A DNA stretch of 64,000 bases from Candidatus Euphemobacter frigidus (lineage in GTDB: Bacteria > Auribacterota > Erginobacteria > Erginobacterales > Erginobacteraceae): NCBI GenBank assembly GCA_030765805.1, contig JAVCDH010000111.1, forward strand, positions 5,424 to 69,423, written 5' to 3'. Both the position numbers and the translations under genes were made by a program. The notes beneath the pieces are model-generated. The model made no database searches. It was not told where the DNA came from and worked only from the letters and a program-made list of their open reading frames with translations. Below are positions 10,974-22,206 of the stretch, piece by piece. The stretch's first letter is position 1. The number at the start of each line of letters is the position of its first letter.

Positions 10974-13424
10974 ATGACAAAAAAACCCCGAATTAATCAT
11001 CCTGAGAACAGCAAATCGTCGAACCCTCCCGGAAGACTATCTTGGTTCGCGGCAATTTTAGTTCTTGTACTTCTTGTCCTGTTGATCTTCGTGGAAGGGG
11101 TGGAATCCAACCCGGTCTGCAGCGGCGGTAGCGCCCACTGGTGGGGCGGCAATTTAGAGCCCCAGGCTTGTTATCCTCTCGACATTCCGGCTGACAAGCT
11201 GGTGCTGAGCCCCCATGTCTACGGCCCCGACGTTTACCCCCAGGAATATTTCAATGATCCTGATTTCCCCGAAAACATGGGAGCGATCTGGGAGGCCCAC
11301 TTCGGCTTCCTGGTGAACGAGAGTTACGCGGTGGTCCCGGGCGAGTTCGGCGGCAAGTACGGCCACGGCGGCAATCCCCGCGATCCGATACTCCAGGACT
11401 CCCTGGTCGATTATTTCCTGGAGAAAGATATCCCCGGATTCTTCTACTGGTGCTGGAACCCGAACAGCGGGGACACGGGGGGGATACTCAAGGACGACTG
11501 GACAACGGTCTGGGATGACAAGGTCGTTCTCCTCCACCGGATGATGGCTGATGGTGATCCGACCCCCACTCCGGTCTGCGGACCGGGTTTTCCGGACCGG
11601 GTCTTCGCCCCTTACGTGGATGTCTGCATCTACCCGCGGTTCTTCATCACCGAGATGAACACGGCGATGGGGACGAAGTACTACACCCTGGCCTTCGTCG
11701 TCAGCGCCAATGACGGAATCGGACGGCCGGCCTGGGGCGGCTATCCGGAATATCTGGTGGAGGGTGACTGGTACCGGGACGAGATCGACGAGATCCAGGC
11801 GCGGGGAGGAGACGTGATCGTCTCCTTCGGCGGCGAGGCGAGCTCGGAACTCGCCCTGGCCCATGACAATGTCGAGGATCTCCGGGCCGCCTACCAGTCG
11901 GTGATCGACAGATATCACCTGACCCGGGTCGACTTCGACATCGAGGGCGCGGCAGTCGCCCATACGGAATCAATCGACCGGCGCAACAAGGCCATCAAAC
12001 TCCTCCAGGACCAGAACCCCGATCTGACGGTGGCTTACTGTCTCCCGGTCATCCCCTCGGGGCTGACCCAGGACGGGATAAATCTTCTCCAGAACGCCAT
12101 CGACAACGGGGTGAGGGTGGATGCGGTCAACATCATGGCCATGTTCTTCGGGGCCGGTGCCGCGCCGAACCCGGATGGACAAATGGCGGAGTACGCGATC
12201 GAGGCGGCGGAGAGCCTCTTCGATCAGCTAAAAAGCCTCTACCCGGAAAAGTCTGACAGCCGGCTGTGGCGAATGGTCGGGATAACCCCGATGATCGGCC
12301 GGGGCGGCATCACAACCGAGGTCTTCTATCTGGAGGACGCGGAACAGCTCCTGGCTTTCGCCCGCGAGAAGAACATCAACCTGATCTCCATGTGGTCCGC
12401 CAACCGGGACAACGGTTCCTGCGGAGCGGCATCCTACTCCTCACCGCTCTGCAGCAGCCTCGAGCAGGACGACTTCGCGTTCTCGGAGATCTTTGAGCAG
12501 TTCACGGGCGCGGTGGTGCCGACCCCCACCCCGGCTGCTACCGGGACACCGGAGCCCACGGCCACTGCCCCGCCGGCACCGAGCCCGAGCGTTCCGGCGG
12601 TCCCCACCCCCACTCCAGGTGACCCGGGACCGACAGTTCCTCCGACGCCGGCTCCCCCGATTCCGCCGGCTGCCCGGCAGCTCCCGGTTATCGAATCCGG
12701 AGACTACGACGGAGACGGGAGTTCCGATGTTGCCCTCTTCCGGCCCTCCACCGGCTTCTGGGCGGTGAGAGGGATTACGGCCTGTTACTTTGGAAAGGAG
12801 GGAGACATCCCGACCCCAGGCGACTGGAACGGGGATGGGACCACCGAGATCGCCCTCTTCCGGCCTTCCACGGGCCTCTGGTCCGTCAGAGACGGAGACC
12901 GGCTCTACTTCGGAAAGGAGGATGACATCCCGGTCCCCGCAGACTACGACGGAACCGGAGCCTCGGAGATCGCCGTCTTCCGGCCCGCTTCCGGTCTCTG
13001 GGCGGTGAGGGGCGTCACCCGGGACTATTTCGGCCAACCGGATGACAGGCCGCTCCCGGGCGACTACAATGGAGATGGGACCGCCGAGATCGCCCTCTTC
13101 CGGCCCTCCACCGGCCTCTGGGCCGTCAGAGACGGGGGCCGGCTCTACTTCGGGGGAGAGGGGGATATCCCGGTCCCGGCCGACTACGATGGGAACTGGG
13201 AACTGGACGCGGCCATCTTCCGGCCCGCTTCCGGCCTCTGGGCCGTCAGAGGCGGGGACCGGCTCTACTTCGGGGGAGAGGATGATATCCCGGTCCCGGC
13301 CGACTATAATGGTGACGGGACCGCCGAGTTCGGCCTCTTCCGGGAAAGTTCCGGTCTATGGGCGGTGAGTGGAGTATCCCGTCTCTACTTCGGCATCGAT
13401 GGGGATATCCCCGTTACCCGGTAG
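10974..13424 (+). CDS. membrane-anchored chimeric glycoside hydrolase: truncated GH5 C-terminal half + GH18 chitinase-like domain + Pro/Thr linker + six FG-GAP-like repeats
   Basis: N-terminal TM anchor. GH5 C-terminal motifs are present (SPHVYGP, VVPGEFGG nucleophile region, FFYWCWNPNSGDTGG). The GH5 acid/base NEP region is absent. The GH18 catalytic motif DxDxE appears as RVDFDIEG. The linker PTPTPAATGTPEPTATAPPAPSPS is followed by six repeats of about 40 aa, consensus NGDGxxEIALFRPSTGLWAVR...YFGxxxDIPVPxDY, ending GDIPVTR. Confidence 0.7.
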   Translation: MTKKPRINHPENSKSSNPPGRLSWFAAILVLVLLVLLIFVEGVESNPVCSGGSAHWWGGNLEPQACYPLDIPADKLVLSPHVYGPDVYPQEYFNDPDFPENMGAIWEAHFGFLVNESYAVVPGEFGGKYGHGGNPRDPILQDSLVDYFLEKDIPGFFYWCWNPNSGDTGGILKDDWTTVWDDKVVLLHRMMADGDPTPTPVCGPGFPDRVFAPYVDVCIYPRFFITEMNTAMGTKYYTLAFVVSANDGIGRPAWGGYPEYLVEGDWYRDEIDEIQARGGDVIVSFGGEASSELALAHDNVEDLRAAYQSVIDRYHLTRVDFDIEGAAVAHTESIDRRNKAIKLLQDQNPDLTVAYCLPVIPSGLTQDGINLLQNAIDNGVRVDAVNIMAMFFGAGAAPNPDGQMAEYAIEAAESLFDQLKSLYPEKSDSRLWRMVGITPMIGRGGITTEVFYLEDAEQLLAFAREKNINLISMWSANRDNGSCGAASYSSPLCSSLEQDDFAFSEIFEQFTGAVVPTPTPAATGTPEPTATAPPAPSPSVPAVPTPTPGDPGPTVPPTPAPPIPPAARQLPVIESGDYDGDGSSDVALFRPSTGFWAVRGITACYFGKEGDIPTPGDWNGDGTTEIALFRPSTGLWSVRDGDRLYFGKEDDIPVPADYDGTGASEIAVFRPASGLWAVRGVTRDYFGQPDDRPLPGDYNGDGTAEIALFRPSTGLWAVRDGGRLYFGGEGDIPVPADYDGNWELDAAIFRPASGLWAVRGGDRLYFGGEDDIPVPADYNGDGTAEFGLFRESSGLWAVSGVSRLYFGIDGDIPVTR

Positions 13425-16025: not shown

Positions 16026-19000
16026 ATGCACATCGGGCAAGCGTTTATCTGCCTGGCAAATATCGAACAATCTCACACAATCCAGTCTTCCTTGCCCCGG
16101 GGGAGGAAAGCCCTTTTGCGGGGCAGCCGCCTCATGGCGCTCGTTCTGGCCGGATGCCTGCTATCCTTATTCTCGGCAGCGGGGACAGTATCGGCCCAGG
16201 ATTGGGGACTCCTTACCGACGGCACTGTTCACGTCATGCTCTCCTCTCACCAGGATCTGGGATGGGAGGACTCTATTGCAGTGTGCAACGAAATTAGAAA
16301 CGACAAAATTATCAAGCCCGTTCTGGAGTGGATGGGGCAGACCGATACCAACTATCGTTACACCTTTGAATACGTTTACGCCCTGATGCATTATCTAGAT
16401 ACCTATCCGGAGGCTCTCCCGACGGTCCGGGAACACACGGCATCCGGCCGCTTCCAGTGGGGCGCCGCTTACAACGATTTTTATGAATCGCTCTTTTCGA
16501 GCGAGGGGCTGGTCCGCCAGTTCTACCTGGGCAAGAAGTGGATGAAGACCACGCTGGGGGAAGGCTGCGAGTCCCGCACCTATATCAACATGGACCCACC
16601 CCAACGGGCGCTCCAGATACCGCAGATTCTCAACAAAGCCGGCATCGACTTCCTGGTGACCAGCCGAACGAATGCGAGTTTGTTCAAATGGTCGAGTCCC
16701 AACGCCCATACAGATTCCCCGGATGATTACAGCGTGCTGGTATTTTCCAACGGGCTCTATGGCATTCCCTGGCTCTGGTATAGCAGCAAGGGGATGCTGA
16801 CCCCCTATTCCAACGCATGGAAAAATGAAACAGGGCCTGTCCCCAACTATCCTTCAGCTCTTTTTCACGCCGAGACAAGTGTTTGGGATTACTGGAGCCA
16901 GTATACTGACCCGTCGGCTCACCAGGGTTCGCCGGAAGGCATGACCTGGGAGGAGTATTTCCAGGGCAACAATTTTCCGGCTCAGTTCCCGCTTTTATAC
17001 ACTAACGACATGGCCAAACCATCACCATACCTCGGTGTCCTAACAGCTGAATACAACTCCGATCTTATTCAGGATTGGAACCAATGGGAGGAGTACACCG
17101 CCCGCGACTGGCCGGAGATACGATTATTCACCTGCGACCAGGCCCTGGGGGCATTCTGGTCCGCCGCCACCCAGTCGGGAGTAATTTTCGAAGAGTGGAG
17201 GGGGGAACGCCCGAACCTGTGGTTATACAGCCACGGTCCCGGGCATCACTGGGCGGGCAGCGCCATCCGTGAAGCCGGCCGGCTCCTTCCGGCAGCGGAG
17301 ACCTTTGCCACCATCGAGTGCCTGCTGGCCGGGGATTTCAGTTCTTACCCAAGCAATGATCTTTTGAATGGGTGGAAGGGCGCCATCTTCCCAGGTCATG
17401 GTTGGGGTGGTGAAGATGGCGAAGATACCGATAACCGCTTCCTCTGGGCGGCCCAGACCGGAGAGCGGGTGGGACGGGAGGTCCTCGCGAACGCCCTGGA
17501 ATCGATCGCGGCACGGGTGGATACCGAAGGCTTCGGGGGGGAGCCGATCATCATCTTCAACATGCTCCCCTGGGAACGGAGCGACCCGGTAATCTGCCGG
17601 ATTGAACCGGAGGGAGAGAACTGGTCCATCGTTGACAGCGACTGGGCCCCGGTCACCCGCCAGGTGCTGGATGACGCCGATGGGAGTAAGGAGGTCGTCT
17701 TTATCGCCCGGGACGTGCCTTCCCTGGGATATCGGACCTATTACCTGGTGGAAGACGGCGCGGGCGCGCCACCCGCTCGGAGCGCGGTATCGGGTGAGAA
17801 CCAATATTACCGGTGGGAACTGAGCCCGGGCGGTTTCACCAGCCTCACCGACCGGGAACTGAATCTGGAGATCCTGGCCGCGACCAAATCATACGGCGGT
17901 AAGACATTCCGCGGCGCCGAATTCTTCTCCATGTCCGCCTGCTGTGCCTGCGCCACCTATCCAACCTGCTGCTGCGGGGCTTTCGAACAACAGACAATCA
18001 TGCAACCCGACCCGAACTCTTACTTTCAACAGATGAGGGATTACGGGGCCGGGTGGACAGAGGTCGAGGCGGGTCCGGTCCGGGACTCGTTTGAATACGA
18101 AGTAGTGGTAGATGACTGGACCGCCCGCCAGAAACTTATCTTCTACCGGGATCTGAAGCGGATCGACTGCGAGTTCTCGATGCAGTCGTGGCCCGGCACC
18201 CACTGGCGGGAGTGGAGAATGGCACTGCCGGTGAACCTGGATTCGGGTTTCGTGAGCTACGAGGTCCCCATGGGTGTGGTCCAGGTCGGCCGGGATGAGC
18301 TGCCGTTTCCGGCGGGGGGGCATTACAACGAGCAGACCTGCAGCTACGTCACTCCCCGGGAGGTCCAGAACTTCATCAGCGTCTGCGGTCTGAACCCGGC
18401 TTTCGGAGAGCAGACCTTCGGGGTAACGATGAGTTCCAGTGTAGCCGTCTGCAATTATATCTTCCCCCCCAGCACCTATGTCGGCCCCGACTCACAGGGG
18501 AGAATAAGCGATCCGATCCTCCAGCCGATTCTCCTGGCTACCCGTCACAGCAATAAAGATGATGGGAATTGGTGGTCACAGGAGGGAGATCACAATTATT
18601 ACTTCTCTATATTCTCCCACGAGGGCGACTGGAGAAACGGATGGAGGAGCGCCGCCCAGGCCAACAGCCCCCTAGTACCGGTTGTGGGGGTCGCGCCTGC
18701 CGCCGGTGCCAATCTCCCGGAGGAGAAGAGTTTCTGCTCGGTCGCCCCCGACAACATCGTCCTCACCGCTTTTAAGAAACGTGAAGATGATATCTTCACC
18801 CCAGAAGGCACGGTTGACGAAGATGTTATCGTGCGCTTTTACGACATTGAAGGCCGACACACATCCGACGCCGAGATCAGATTCTTTTTCACGGTGGAAG
18901 GGGCCGAAAAGACGAACATCCTCGAAGAACCGCTGGCGGGGGGTGGATCCGGCATCTCTGTTTCCGGGCAGTCGGTGAGACTGGATGTCGGCCACCACTC

Positions 19001-19820
19001 CATCGAGACGCTGCGAATAGTTCCCGGGCCCATCCCTCAACCCACTCCGGACTATATAGTTCTCAAATCCGGCGATTACAACGGTGACGGTAAATCGGAT
19101 ATCGCCGTCTTTAGGCAGTCCACCGGACTCTGGGCGGTGAGGGGATTGGGGCGGATCTATTTCGGCACCACCGGCGACATTCCGGTGAGCGGAGATTACG
19201 ATGGCGACGGCATCACCGACGTCTCGATCTTCCGGCCCTCAACGGGCCTTTGGGCGGTCAAAGGGATCACCCGGCTATATTTTGGGGGCTCAAACGATCT
19301 TCCAATTCCCGGCGATTATAACGGGAACGGATTATGTGATATCGCCGTCTTCGGAAATACAAGCGGTTGGTGGAGCGTGAAGGGTCTCACACAGGTTTAT
19401 TTCGGAATCTTGAACGATCGGCCGGTTCCGGGAGACTTCAATGGAGATGAAAAGGCGGAGATCGCCATATTCCGGCCCTCCTCCGGTCTCTGGGCGCTTC
19501 GGGACATTACCCGCTGTTATTTCGGTGGAGGTGATGACATACCAGTCCCCGGTGTGTATGAATGGTACGGTGCTGCCCGGGCGTCGGGCACCTTTAAAAG
19601 CCGGATCGCCGTCTTCCGGCCAGACAGCGGGTTATGGGCCATTCGGGGTTTCACCCGTTATTATTTTGGGGCGGTCGATGACAGGCCGGTCATAGGTGAC
19701 TTTACGGGCAATTCCCTGGATGATATCGCTATATTCCGGCAAGGTACCGGTCTCTGGGCGGCAAAAGGGATTACCCGGGCTTACTTTGGCACTTTTGGGG
19801 ATATTCCGGTGACACGCTAA
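16026..19820 (+). CDS. secreted GH38-like (alpha-mannosidase family) glycoside hydrolase with a C-terminal tail of FG-GAP-like repeats
   Basis: Signal peptide RLMALVLAGCLLSLFSAAGTVSA after a 36-aa N-terminal extension. The GH38 N-domain-like motif is MLSSHQDLGWEDS (compare HSHxDxGW). An unusual Cys cluster ACCACATYPTCCCG is present. The C-terminal about 280 aa are six or seven 40-aa repeats (DxNGDGxxDIAVFRxSTGLWAV...YFGxxxDIPVPGDY) ending GDIPVTR. Confidence 0.55.
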   Translation: MHIGQAFICLANIEQSHTIQSSLPRGRKALLRGSRLMALVLAGCLLSLFSAAGTVSAQDWGLLTDGTVHVMLSSHQDLGWEDSIAVCNEIRNDKIIKPVLEWMGQTDTNYRYTFEYVYALMHYLDTYPEALPTVREHTASGRFQWGAAYNDFYESLFSSEGLVRQFYLGKKWMKTTLGEGCESRTYINMDPPQRALQIPQILNKAGIDFLVTSRTNASLFKWSSPNAHTDSPDDYSVLVFSNGLYGIPWLWYSSKGMLTPYSNAWKNETGPVPNYPSALFHAETSVWDYWSQYTDPSAHQGSPEGMTWEEYFQGNNFPAQFPLLYTNDMAKPSPYLGVLTAEYNSDLIQDWNQWEEYTARDWPEIRLFTCDQALGAFWSAATQSGVIFEEWRGERPNLWLYSHGPGHHWAGSAIREAGRLLPAAETFATIECLLAGDFSSYPSNDLLNGWKGAIFPGHGWGGEDGEDTDNRFLWAAQTGERVGREVLANALESIAARVDTEGFGGEPIIIFNMLPWERSDPVICRIEPEGENWSIVDSDWAPVTRQVLDDADGSKEVVFIARDVPSLGYRTYYLVEDGAGAPPARSAVSGENQYYRWELSPGGFTSLTDRELNLEILAATKSYGGKTFRGAEFFSMSACCACATYPTCCCGAFEQQTIMQPDPNSYFQQMRDYGAGWTEVEAGPVRDSFEYEVVVDDWTARQKLIFYRDLKRIDCEFSMQSWPGTHWREWRMALPVNLDSGFVSYEVPMGVVQVGRDELPFPAGGHYNEQTCSYVTPREVQNFISVCGLNPAFGEQTFGVTMSSSVAVCNYIFPPSTYVGPDSQGRISDPILQPILLATRHSNKDDGNWWSQEGDHNYYFSIFSHEGDWRNGWRSAAQANSPLVPVVGVAPAAGANLPEEKSFCSVAPDNIVLTAFKKREDDIFTPEGTVDEDVIVRFYDIEGRHTSDAEIRFFFTVEGAEKTNILEEPLAGGGSGISVSGQSVRLDVGHHSIETLRIVPGPIPQPTPDYIVLKSGDYNGDGKSDIAVFRQSTGLWAVRGLGRIYFGTTGDIPVSGDYDGDGITDVSIFRPSTGLWAVKGITRLYFGGSNDLPIPGDYNGNGLCDIAVFGNTSGWWSVKGLTQVYFGILNDRPVPGDFNGDEKAEIAIFRPSSGLWALRDITRCYFGGGDDIPVPGVYEWYGAARASGTFKSRIAVFRPDSGLWAIRGFTRYYFGAVDDRPVIGDFTGNSLDDIAIFRQGTGLWAAKGITRAYFGTFGDIPVTR

Positions 19821-19905
19821 AAACCAGTACGGGTCGGACCTGCGTAACTTGTTTAATATCAATTAGTTAGATCCTCAAAATAGCTGTTTTCAGGGCTTAG
19901 AGGTC

Positions 19906-19937
19906 CAGTTTTGGGGTCAAAACTGACACTGTAATAG
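19906..19937 (+). terminator. hairpin (cagtttt-ggggtc-aaaactg) followed by T-rich tract; likely terminator of the GH38-like gene and left REP-like element
   Basis: Seen in sequence 86 nt after the stop at 19820. The stem is 7 bp and is followed by taatagattttt. Confidence 0.3.
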
Positions 19938-20068
19938 ATTTTTGGCTCCCTCAATACACCGATTCCATTCTCTTCGGCTATCTCTCGATCCATAGCCTCA
20001 ACACCCAACCTATCCATAACATCTTTTACAAAAGTATGATCTCCCACTGCAATACTTTCGGTACATTT

Positions 20069-20198
20069 TTAATGACGCACCTTTCCATCACCTTCCAGAA
20101 CAGCTTCTATCCAGGCTCTCTGTTGTTGCGCCAATTCCTCCACGCTATTGAGATGCCAGATAAAACCGGGAATATGATGTCTGTTTGCCCTAGGCATA
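20069..20198 (-). pseudogene. truncated RayT/IS200-like transposase N-terminal fragment (43 codons)
   Basis: Translation is MPRANRHHIPGFIWHLNSVEELAQQQRAWIEAVLEGDGKVRH followed by a stop. Only the N-terminal motif is recognisable. The adjacent ORF 19859..20047 may be a frameshifted continuation. Confidence 0.3.
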
Positions 20199-20211
20199 AG
20201 AACCAACTTTC

Positions 20212-20254
20212 CTTAGAGGTCCAGTTTTAACCCTAAAACTGGACCTCTAAGCCC
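20212..20254 (-). terminator. perfect 17-20-bp stem hairpin (cttagaggtccagtttt/aaaactggacctctaag) downstream of pckG; REP-like element copy and possible terminator
   Basis: Perfect palindrome read from the sequence, located 45 nt beyond the pckG stop on the minus strand. Confidence 0.35.
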
Positions 20255-20298
20255 TGTGAGAGGCCGTAAATATATGTTACCTGTTTGTATATAGTGCG

Positions 20299-22206
20299 TT
20301 ACGTAGGTCCGACCCCAACGAACAACGAAAATGGGGAGATATAGTCTCCGTGCTCGGCCCTGGCCTCCTCCAACCTTCTCTTCTGCTCCTCGAAGACCCG
20401 ATAAAATATCTCCGGGGGGGGTACCTCTTCATCGTTATAAATCTTGAGCATCCTCTCGATCTTGGCCAGGCACTCCGGAACCCGGATCTTAAACTGCTCG
20501 ATGTAATCTTCTTCGGAGTAATCCTTATCCAGCACTTCCCGGAAGAGACGCTTCAGATCCGGATAGCGGGGGATGTATCCGGTGGGAGACTGGATCATCT
20601 CCAGGTCGTTATTTATCGATAGTTCCATCCACTTCAGCCAGACTCGCTTATCTTCATGGCCGTTCAGGTACTCACCGTCACCGCCCCGGAGGAAGTAGTT
20701 AACGGAGAAGATGACCGGCGGCTTACTGAGCCTTTCTCCGAAAGCGAGGTATTTCTTAACGTAATCAGACAGGGAGACGGGCAAGAAATCCAGATTCGAC
20801 ATAATGTTGAACTTCCTCACCCCCTCCTCCCCGAGGGTGGCGGCGGTGGTCTCCGACTCGATAGCCGCGCCCTTGGTAATAACCCCGTGGTTCCAATCAA
20901 AAGCTCTCTCGACCGGTACCCAGGTATCGGAGTCCCGGCCTCCGTAAAGGATGCCGCCCAGTTCCACACCGTTGGGATCGTCTCCCAGAGGATCGCGGTT
21001 GCTGAGCCGGGAGAGACTGACCGTATAGCGGGCGTTCTTATGGGCGCAGGGGATCGGCTTGCCTTCTTCATCAGTTTTCCCCTTCTGCCAGCGGCCGGAA
21101 AAATTGGTTCCCCGTTCTGGGGTCTCCCGCCCGTCTCCCAGCCAGTACGGCACTCCATCATCGGTGATGAGTACGTTGCTGAAGATCACCTCTCCGGGTG
21201 TCGTCAGGACATCCCAGATCACCGGATCATCTTTCCGGCTGACATCCCGGATGATCCCGAATATCCCCGCCTCCACGTTGGCGGCGAAACATCTCCCCCC
21301 CCTCTCTCGCAGGTAGGCTATATCATCCCCCACGATCGTCTCCCCGGCGCACATGGCGGTGGAGGTCTTCCCGCAGGCGCTGGGAAATGCGCCGGAGAAA
21401 TAAGTCACCCTCTCCCCCGGTCCGTGGACCCCCATCAGGAGCATATGCTCGGACAGCCATCCTTGACGTAAGGCCCTCCGGATGGCAAGGCGGAGGGCCG
21501 GTTTCTTTAAGCCGATCGTATTGCCGGCATACTGGGTATTGGTGCTGAAGACGATGTCCTCTTCGAGATCGATGTAGATCCGCCTACCATCGACGTCCGC
21601 GCTGACATTATCTTCCAGTCTTCCGGCGCTGTGAATGAACCGGAAGAAATCGACGGCATCACCGATGCTCTGGAAATAATCGTATCCCTTCCGGTAGAGA
21701 ATAGTCTCGGAGTGGGCCACATAGCTGGAATCGGTGATCTGGACGCAGGGGATGGAGAACCCGGAGAAGGTCGGTCCAAGACAGAAGAAGAGAATAAGCG
21801 CTTCCTTCCCCCGCATACTGTCTCTCAGTAGATCCTCTACTTCCTTCAACCCGGCCGCCTTTTCGATTGAGTTGATCCGGGAGCCCAGGTCCACCCCGGG
21901 AGGGAGAAGATATTTGGTCCGGGCCTTGTCCCGGGCCTGATCACCGGGACCGTCAAAGTGGATGGTATGGCCCTCAATGGCAAGCTCTCTCTCTTCGTCA
22001 GCCTTTAGAGCCAGACTACGGATGTACGCCGTATTCTTCTCGGAGTCGTCGGCCACATAGACGGAATCGGGATTACAAAGCTCCAGGTAATGAGCGACGA
22101 ATTCGTGCATCTTCGGATTGGCCAGGATCATTAATCTCTCGAAACCGGCGGGCGTACATTTTTCTTTTAGAATCTCAGGTGCAGACTTCACGTTGTTTCT
22201 CTCCAA
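20299..22206 (-). CDS. pckG: phosphoenolpyruvate carboxykinase (GTP)
   Basis: Kinase-1a motif GAFPSACGKTS. 635 aa, the typical GTP-PEPCK length. Overall collinearity with PckG. Confidence 0.95.
   Translation of the reverse strand: MERNNVKSAPEILKEKCTPAGFERLMILANPKMHEFVAHYLELCNPDSVYVADDSEKNTAYIRSLALKADEERELAIEGHTIHFDGPGDQARDKARTKYLLPPGVDLGSRINSIEKAAGLKEVEDLLRDSMRGKEALILFFCLGPTFSGFSIPCVQITDSSYVAHSETILYRKGYDYFQSIGDAVDFFRFIHSAGRLEDNVSADVDGRRIYIDLEEDIVFSTNTQYAGNTIGLKKPALRLAIRRALRQGWLSEHMLLMGVHGPGERVTYFSGAFPSACGKTSTAMCAGETIVGDDIAYLRERGGRCFAANVEAGIFGIIRDVSRKDDPVIWDVLTTPGEVIFSNVLITDDGVPYWLGDGRETPERGTNFSGRWQKGKTDEEGKPIPCAHKNARYTVSLSRLSNRDPLGDDPNGVELGGILYGGRDSDTWVPVERAFDWNHGVITKGAAIESETTAATLGEEGVRKFNIMSNLDFLPVSLSDYVKKYLAFGERLSKPPVIFSVNYFLRGGDGEYLNGHEDKRVWLKWMELSINNDLEMIQSPTGYIPRYPDLKRLFREVLDKDYSEEDYIEQFKIRVPECLAKIERMLKIYNDEEVPPPEIFYRVFEEQKRRLEEARAEHGDYISPFSLFVGVGPT

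Follow-up and report, generated by a model that had tools for sequence, protein, structure and literature searches.

A probable fossil of a RayT-like mobile element with inverted-repeat ends between a GH38-like gene and pckG in Candidatus Euphemobacter frigidus

In a 64-kb stretch of DNA (the window) from Candidatus Euphemobacter frigidus, an Auribacterota species of Ace Lake (PMC9324843), the remnant of a mobile element lies between two convergent genes. On the plus strand is a GH38-like gene (16026-19820), whose 1264-aa product is mannosidase-like, with Glyco_hydro_38N and 38C domains and FG-GAP repeats. On the minus strand is pckG (20299-22206), encoding GTP-dependent phosphoenolpyruvate carboxykinase (PEPCK_GTP, E = 3e-102). 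The remnant takes up 486 bp (19831-20316, minus strand), equivalent to an intact element of ~940 bp less one 453-bp deletion, and its GC content is ~43% as against 52-60% in the flanks. A preliminary description had seen here a degenerate transposase remnant of the RayT/IS200 superfamily, bracketed by hairpins resembling repetitive extragenic palindromes (REPs), and had read the whole as a decayed REPtron. Our analysis bears out the transposase remnant and gives a different account of the repeats and of the kind of element.

An inverted repeat bounds the remnant. It pairs 19831-19848 with 20298-20315, 18 nt with one mismatch (17 of 18 positions complementary); the 21 bp first given for it shrinks to 18-19 nt, as the extra 3 nt per end hold two mismatches. 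In the sense of the transposase gene, the left-end (5') arm of this terminal inverted repeat (TIR) is GGGGTCGGACCTACGTAAC (20298-20316, minus strand), a motif that recurs in related loci, and the right-end (3') arm, GTTACGCAGGTCCGACCC on the sense strand (19831-19848, minus strand), recurs after the gene's stop codon elsewhere. At up to three mismatches the TIR motif has only these two sites in the window, where 0.07 were expected, and two matches arose in 0 of 100 shuffles. The 20-mer GGGCTTAGAGGTCCAGTTTT, described earlier as a hairpin element in two copies, occurs without mismatch at 19893-19912 (+) and 20235-20254 (-). A further copy, with three mismatches (20209-20228, +; 0.01 expected by shuffling) pairs with the second to form the left-end subterminal hairpin at 20212-20251. 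This hairpin has a perfect 18-bp stem and a 4-nt loop, lies 73 nt from the element tip, and has a DNA free energy of -18.4 kcal/mol (z = -9.1; 0 of 200 shuffles); it ends 14 nt ahead of the start codon and lies 47 nt after the pckG stop. The right-end hairpin (19897-19934; free energy -7.7, z = -2.65) is imperfect, as it is across the family, and sits 74 nt from its tip within the last 25 codons of the gene (SVSFDPKTGPLSP). Chance similarity as the source of these repeats and hairpins is ruled out by the shuffle counts. At up to three mismatches the window holds no further copy of hairpin or TIR. An Rfam search of 19600-20500 returned just a chance snoRNA match, below threshold, and a terminator/promoter scan found no promoter-like site.

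Between its ends the remnant carries a broken coding sequence (19859-20197, minus strand), in which residues 1-15 of a 263-aa protein are joined to residues 167-263, with one internal stop. The short open reading frame (ORF) already reported, beginning MPRANRHHIPGFIWHL, runs from 20197 to 20069 on the minus strand and has 42 codons plus a stop. A 62-codon ORF (20047-19859) follows in the same frame, parted from it by a single TAA nonsense codon (20071-20069); jointly the two make up the N-terminal 15 and the C-terminal ~97 residues of one protein. Homologues have no stop at the position of the TAA (...VRDSKWSESIAVG...), and the 62-codon ORF starts with GTG directly after this in-frame stop of the longer frame. 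When the two ORFs were fused, the resulting 111-residue translation brought up nine short relatives. Among them P0003 (188 aa) has FWEDRYHATAV and YIDLNMVR, and P0007 (133 aa) has SNHIHLL; the remnant is 49-71% identical to these two. A 263-aa composite full-length protein was assembled from the short relatives. In a tblastn comparison of this composite with the window only residues 1-17 and 167-263 match, and no intact gene is present there. In hhalign the remnant matches residues 164-262 of the family alignment, the C-terminal 99, with a probability of 99.9% (E = 3e-31).

How was the middle of the gene lost? Intact copies, for which the preliminary description had advised a search, were found elsewhere, and a MAFFT alignment with five of them (L006, L007, L025, L027, L028; intact length 940-944 bp) opens a single 453-column gap, with 79-86% nucleotide identity over the 486 common columns. 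The junction lies between TGGCAT and CTCAAT (20152-20153, minus strand) in the sequence TGGCATCTCAATAGC. The deletion is in-frame and removes codons 16-166, among them the HuH motif (H60, H62), the W motif (FWEDRY) and the tyrosine motif (Y121-IDLNM), so that the window copy is without any catalytic motif. Pfam gave no Y1 match for the two short window ORFs, only a chance MPI_cupin match (E = 0.076), because the catalytic core is deleted. The preliminary description would have been given up if the ORF had shown no similarity to Y1 transposases in a profile search and the hairpin had no other copies; taken literally, half of this is the case, since no profile matches the short ORF by itself, but only because of the deletion. 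Judged from its sequence, the window copy is a pseudogene descended from an HUH/Y1 member rather than a functional member, and it can no longer produce the enzyme. A hypothetical protein on record for Ca. Euphemobacter frigidus (MDP8215245.1, MDP8276696.1) has exactly the sequence of the 62-aa ORF; the annotation is an artefact, the annotated protein being a pseudogene fragment. Two short ENA contigs (L001 and L002) carry the same pckG/GH38 locus with the same deletion, and other remnants are truncated at differing points.

The intact family protein was placed by profile and fold. Pfam Y1_Tnp (PF01797; cut-off 23) is passed by the composite with 35.7 bits and by P0007 with 23.8 bits. The best NCBIfam model for the composite is REP_Tyr_transpos, at 68 bits under its cut-off of 80; for transpos_IS200 the score is 17 bits, where 55 are required. 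The composite retrieved more than 7,700 proteins, mostly of 259-268 aa and many on ~1-kb contigs. A profile search of 1.84 billion representatives gave 768 matches at E <= 1e-30, many of them fragments or two separate stretches. Residues invariant in the family are H60-x-H62 (HuH), W100-E-D-R-Y and Y121-I-D-L-N-M, including M126. With an intact relative as query, searching PDB sequences gave no significant match (4er8, E = 0.56; TraI, 0.11), and fold comparison was used instead. The AlphaFold model of the intact relative P0010 (predicted local distance difference test, pLDDT, 84.5; predicted template-modelling score, pTM, 0.81) has as its best PDB match 4er8, E. coli TnpA-REP bound to a REP hairpin (E = 3e-6, TM 0.69), followed by the TnpA proteins of IS608, ISDra2 and IS200; these matches share 15-22% identity with P0010. 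The Y1_Tnp pass and this predicted fold support the parent gene being a RayT-like HUH/Y1 transposase of the RayT/IS200 superfamily, and with the C-terminal match of the remnant they uphold that part of the preliminary description. For the C-terminal ~110 residues of the family protein Pfam gave no match, and no Bac_DnaA_C, HTH_23 or HTH_28 at E <= 1. Family alignments also show H18-R-C20-H21 and C118 (P0010 numbering) to be invariant or near-invariant, a set that could possibly form an extra metal site.

The ends of the element were surveyed in 80 metagenome loci whose proteins are 50-60% identical. Intact copies (L006, L007, L010, L025, and the distant L013 at 59% protein identity) share one order: GGGGTCGGACCTRCGTAA, a spacer of ~45 nt, the hairpin, a ribosome-binding site and ATG, 263 codons, and GTTACGCAGGTCCGACCC. 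Their hairpin reads CTTAGAGGNCCAGTTTT-N6-AAAACTGGNCCTCTAAGG. The TIR is ~18-28 bp long and begins GGGGTCGGACC, with ~55 nt of spacer between it and the hairpin in the general layout of the family; alignments extend the consensus to ~28 nt, GGGGTCGGACCAAGCTAAC...TTGAT. In most metagenome loci GGGGTCGGACC, with up to two mismatches, precedes the start codon by 107-132 nt, and the last base of GGTCCGACCCC falls 32-53 nt past the end of the protein match. Within the scanned ranges, 64 of 77 loci have the motif at their 5' end and 62 of 78 have it at their 3' end. At the right end, GTTRCNCAGGTCCGACCC(C) follows the gene's stop codon in the unrelated loci L003 and L005, and the right-end TIR sequence is found after the stop codon in L006, L007, L010 and L013 as well. 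The two arms are core-identical in 42 of 50 loci, and they change together: eight loci pair GGGCC with GGCCC, and one pairs TCTGACC with GGTCAGA. The distance from tip to hairpin is constant, at 73-74 nt, at each end. Element length has a median of 941 bp (928-960), and a target duplication of 2-8 bp was found in only 0-1 of 51 elements.

Both hairpins covary. At the left end 75.5% of cells are paired, against 68.5 +/- 0.8 in shuffles and at most 59% in slid controls, with 135 double-sided changes where shuffles give 79 +/- 7; folded individually, most left-end sequences form the hairpin there, and in several family members the start codon comes directly after it. The right hairpin, within coding sequence, has 75.1% paired against 70.5 +/- 0.8 (slid controls at most 53%) and 83 double-sided changes against 51.5 +/- 7.4. 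Since the ends are conserved, co-varying and at a fixed offset, the 'outer inverted repeat' and 'REP-like hairpins' of the preliminary description are the element's ends: the outer repeat and the hairpins are its own two symmetrical end modules, and no independent REPs surround the gene. One intact copy has additional end sequence (L010, 2723-2817 and 3820-3896; also L011 and L012): its 3' TIR is present threefold in tandem, and a further TIR+hairpin module lies ~160 nt upstream of its left end. This arrangement suggests either repeated end duplication or nested insertions.

The flanking genes record where the element lies. The right TIR arm begins 10 nt past the stop codon of the GH38-like gene. 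The left arm (20316-20298) codes the last five codons of pckG (GVGPT) and its stop. PckG orthologues end in ...GDYISPFDL plus 0-6 residues; the window protein ends in ...GDYISPFSLFV followed by GVGPT and the stop (...GDYISPFSLFVGVGPT), orthologue matches span only 96-98% of the query, and the tail loses homology to the orthologues exactly at the start of the TIR. In a related Auribacterota metagenome-assembled genome (MAG) the sequence after pckG is unrelated and holds no copy of the element. Another copy, which has decayed in a different way (L003, 5251-5282; also L004), has its right TIR ~11 nt past the stop of a convergent gene. The tail of that gene product (...VYFGGSGDVPVER, then stop) and the tail of the GH38-like protein (...AYFGTFGDIPVTR, then stop; window 19818-19831) are the same FG-GAP-like repeat tail, and the two proteins have only the C-terminal repeat domain in common, with 50% identity over 278 aa. 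The shared tail beside two copies may reflect a target preference, a co-moved segment or coincidence. In the window a GH5-like gene (10974-13424) and the GH38-like gene both encode FG-GAP repeats at their C-termini, and a gene for a TonB-dependent receptor lies in between.

Copies elsewhere bear on mobility. When 185,579 species genomes were scanned for the hairpin, the nine contigs that came back all belonged to a single MAG, CAKZYZ01; as the window's own locus was not returned, the host genome is outside the scanned collection. CAKZYZ01 contains two intact copies, another that is interrupted by a contig end, one differently deleted copy (L021, lacking residues 49-208 and keeping both ends) and one 5' fragment. 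In addition, at least seven TIR+hairpin modules occur there as solo units that lack the gene. The genes flanking the element vary from locus to locus. A search of plasmid DNA gave no match, tblastn against plasmids gave generic transposases only (at most 34% identity), and IMG/VR viral contigs held no relative. With its many contexts, its ~1-kb contigs, and the multiple copies and deletion derivatives in one MAG, the ~940-bp family looks like one that moves as a whole unit. Another repeat family is present in CAKZYZ01 as well, ~290-360 bp long and 88-95% identical (L019, 1281-1572; L022, 2233-2521; L024, 3450-3807; L026, 5480-5852). It has the same TIR+hairpin start, then unrelated sequence and runs of a 9-nt GAAGTCACC-like repeat, and no transposase gene.

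We conclude, with a probability of roughly nine in ten, that 19831-20316 is a fossil, internally deleted copy of a ~940-bp TIR-flanked RayT-like mobile element. One such element would have inserted between the convergent GH38-like gene and pckG, replacing the last few pckG codons and the stop; later it would have lost 453 bp (codons 16-166, with all catalytic motifs) and gained a nonsense codon. Several points weigh against this conclusion. RNAalifold, run on a MAFFT alignment of 64 left ends, predicted no consensus hairpin, and per-sequence folds and explicit pair counts were used in its place; the structure for the covariation counts at both ends was derived from the window copy. No precise empty site was found: the nearest pckG locus (80% protein identity) is non-syntenic downstream and shows only that the element is absent. 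Copy searches in the host cover the 64-kb window, and the transposition mechanism proposed below is drawn from distant solved relatives, at the 15-22% identity of the fold matches. Lastly, the solo end modules of CAKZYZ01 blur the line between an IS-like (insertion sequence-like) unit and REP-like dissemination.

What class of element is this? Di Nocera et al. (2013; PMC3733652) described RayT-like genes flanked by TIRs as 'TIRtrons' or 'TIRYT'; many share GGGGWSAS, set at a constant interval from the gene, and some of the TIR families are moderately repeated. According to Quentin et al. (2018; PMC6006769) most TIRtrons belong to TnpA-Y1 subclass 2.1, with no REP-like structures found around them. 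The present family likewise has a RayT-like HUH/Y1 gene between TIRs, not GTAG REPs, with the TIR at a fixed distance from the gene and with end modules moderately repeated in some genomes. Its TIR starts GGGG, and GGGGTCGG, compared with the published motif alone, agrees at 7 of 8 positions, having G instead of A at position 7. There are differences too. The C-terminal helix-turn-helix (HTH) domains reported for subclass 2.1 (Bac_DnaA_C, HTH_23, HTH_28; PMC6006769) are absent from the family protein by Pfam; its tyrosine motif is Y-x3-N-M, where Y-x3-N-P is reported for all class-2 TnpA-Y1 proteins; its ends carry a conserved hairpin at 73 nt from either tip, a feature that PMC3733652 and PMC6006769 do not describe for TIRtrons; and the window copy is a dead derivative. 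Even so, the closest described class is the TIRtron, not the REPtron.

A decayed REPtron, as first proposed, would be a RayT gene, once domesticated and present in single copy, between inverted REP hairpins that are dispersed over the genome; REPtrons and RAYT genes of this kind are reportedly the subject of studies by Nunvar (2010), Bertels and Rainey (2011) and Ton-Hoang (2012). The gene is RayT-like, with 4er8 as the nearest solved fold to its predicted one and REP_Tyr_transpos as its top NCBIfam model; inverted hairpin modules do lie on both sides of it, at both ends, and CAKZYZ01 has its gene-less solo modules. However, the hairpin feet lack a GTAG tag and by direct reading are CAGGGCTTAG... 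and ...CTAAGGAAAG, the family stays below the NCBIfam cut-off, and its protein has 263 aa as against 165. The right-end hairpin is coding, not extragenic, and the window holds no dispersed copies of hairpin or TIR. Gene and ends recur as a fixed ~941-bp multi-copy unit in varied contexts, several times in one MAG, unlike a single-copy, vertically inherited gene. We consider a decayed REPtron unlikely.

Just as improbable is a still-mobile non-autonomous derivative, in the manner of a miniature inverted-repeat transposable element (MITE), in which the 486-bp unit would have been propagated in trans by an intact relative. In favour of this, both ends are kept, with both hairpins intact and TIR arms that are 17/18 complementary, while coding capacity is lost and the length is ~0.5 kb, as in MITEs and other internal-deletion IS derivatives; end-keeping deletion derivatives recur (L021), and many representatives match in two stretches. 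But this exact deletion form is known as one copy in one genomic context, the two ENA contigs being the same pckG/GH38 locus, so there is no sign of amplification, and the window has no intact gene. The deletion also differs in each derivative seen, which argues for independent decay, not amplification.

Most improbable of all is an exapted function, with the hairpins as terminators (as the preliminary description had suggested for the convergent genes) or mRNA stabilisers, or with the 62-residue C-terminal ORF as a working small protein, for instance an inhibitor of transposition: a very stable hairpin does lie 47 nt past the pckG stop and the ORF is annotated as a hypothetical protein in a public MAG, yet in the terminator/promoter scan neither hairpin fits the stem-plus-T-run pattern of a simple intrinsic terminator (the sole match in the scanned region is inside pckG), the ORF begins with GTG right after an in-frame stop of the longer frame, and other remnants are truncated at different points.

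The TIR-flanked RayT-like family also resembles the IS200/IS605 group (IS608, ISDra2, IS200) in its HUH/Y1 fold, subterminal hairpins at both ends and lack of target-site duplication. IS200 has a stable hairpin just upstream of its ribosome-binding site, a further likeness to the left end of the family. The family differs from the group in having TIRs, which make its ends symmetrical, in a protein ~110 aa longer (263 aa against ~130-155 aa for TnpA), in a tyrosine motif Y-x3-N in place of Y-x3-Q, in a transpos_IS200 score below cut-off, and in having no tnpB partner gene. The mechanisms of IS608 TnpA and E. coli TnpA-REP are established by structural and biochemical work. By analogy with both, intact members of the family would move as single-stranded DNA, the enzyme recognising the end hairpins and cutting and rejoining at the conserved termini. 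As each end is an inverted copy of the other, the hairpin-plus-tip arrangement would look alike on both strands, unlike in IS608. The position of the start codon directly after the hairpin in several members suggests that the left hairpin may also occlude the ribosome-binding site, as in IS200. As the window copy retains its two ends intact, it might in principle still be mobilised in trans by an intact relative, and is otherwise inert; there is no sign that it ever moved in this way.

A wider reading, which we put forward only tentatively and hold to be somewhat doubtful, is that the remnant belongs to a large, still active IS-like family of ~940 bp that is not formally described. Such a family would combine a 263-aa Y1 enzyme (Y-x3-N-M, H-x-C-H plus C118, and a C-terminal domain without a Pfam match) with ~28-bp TIRs and hairpins at a 73-nt offset, the same on either strand; it would be a hybrid of the IS200/IS605 design, which has hairpins only, and the classical TIR design, and would shed REP-like solo end modules. 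If this is true, the window copy, having both ends intact, could be a trans-mobilisable member.

For Ca. Euphemobacter frigidus the locus itself is ordinary genomic debris. The interval merits annotation as a transposase pseudogene or IS remnant, and the last five codons and the stop of pckG are borrowed from the element. The anatomy of the family is clear: a fixed length, covariation in the TIR arms and in the hairpins, whose offset is fixed and one of which is coding, and no target duplication. This goes beyond what a single fossil can show. The class of TIR-flanked RayT-like elements has so far been described only bioinformatically, and this anatomy makes it directly testable in vitro.

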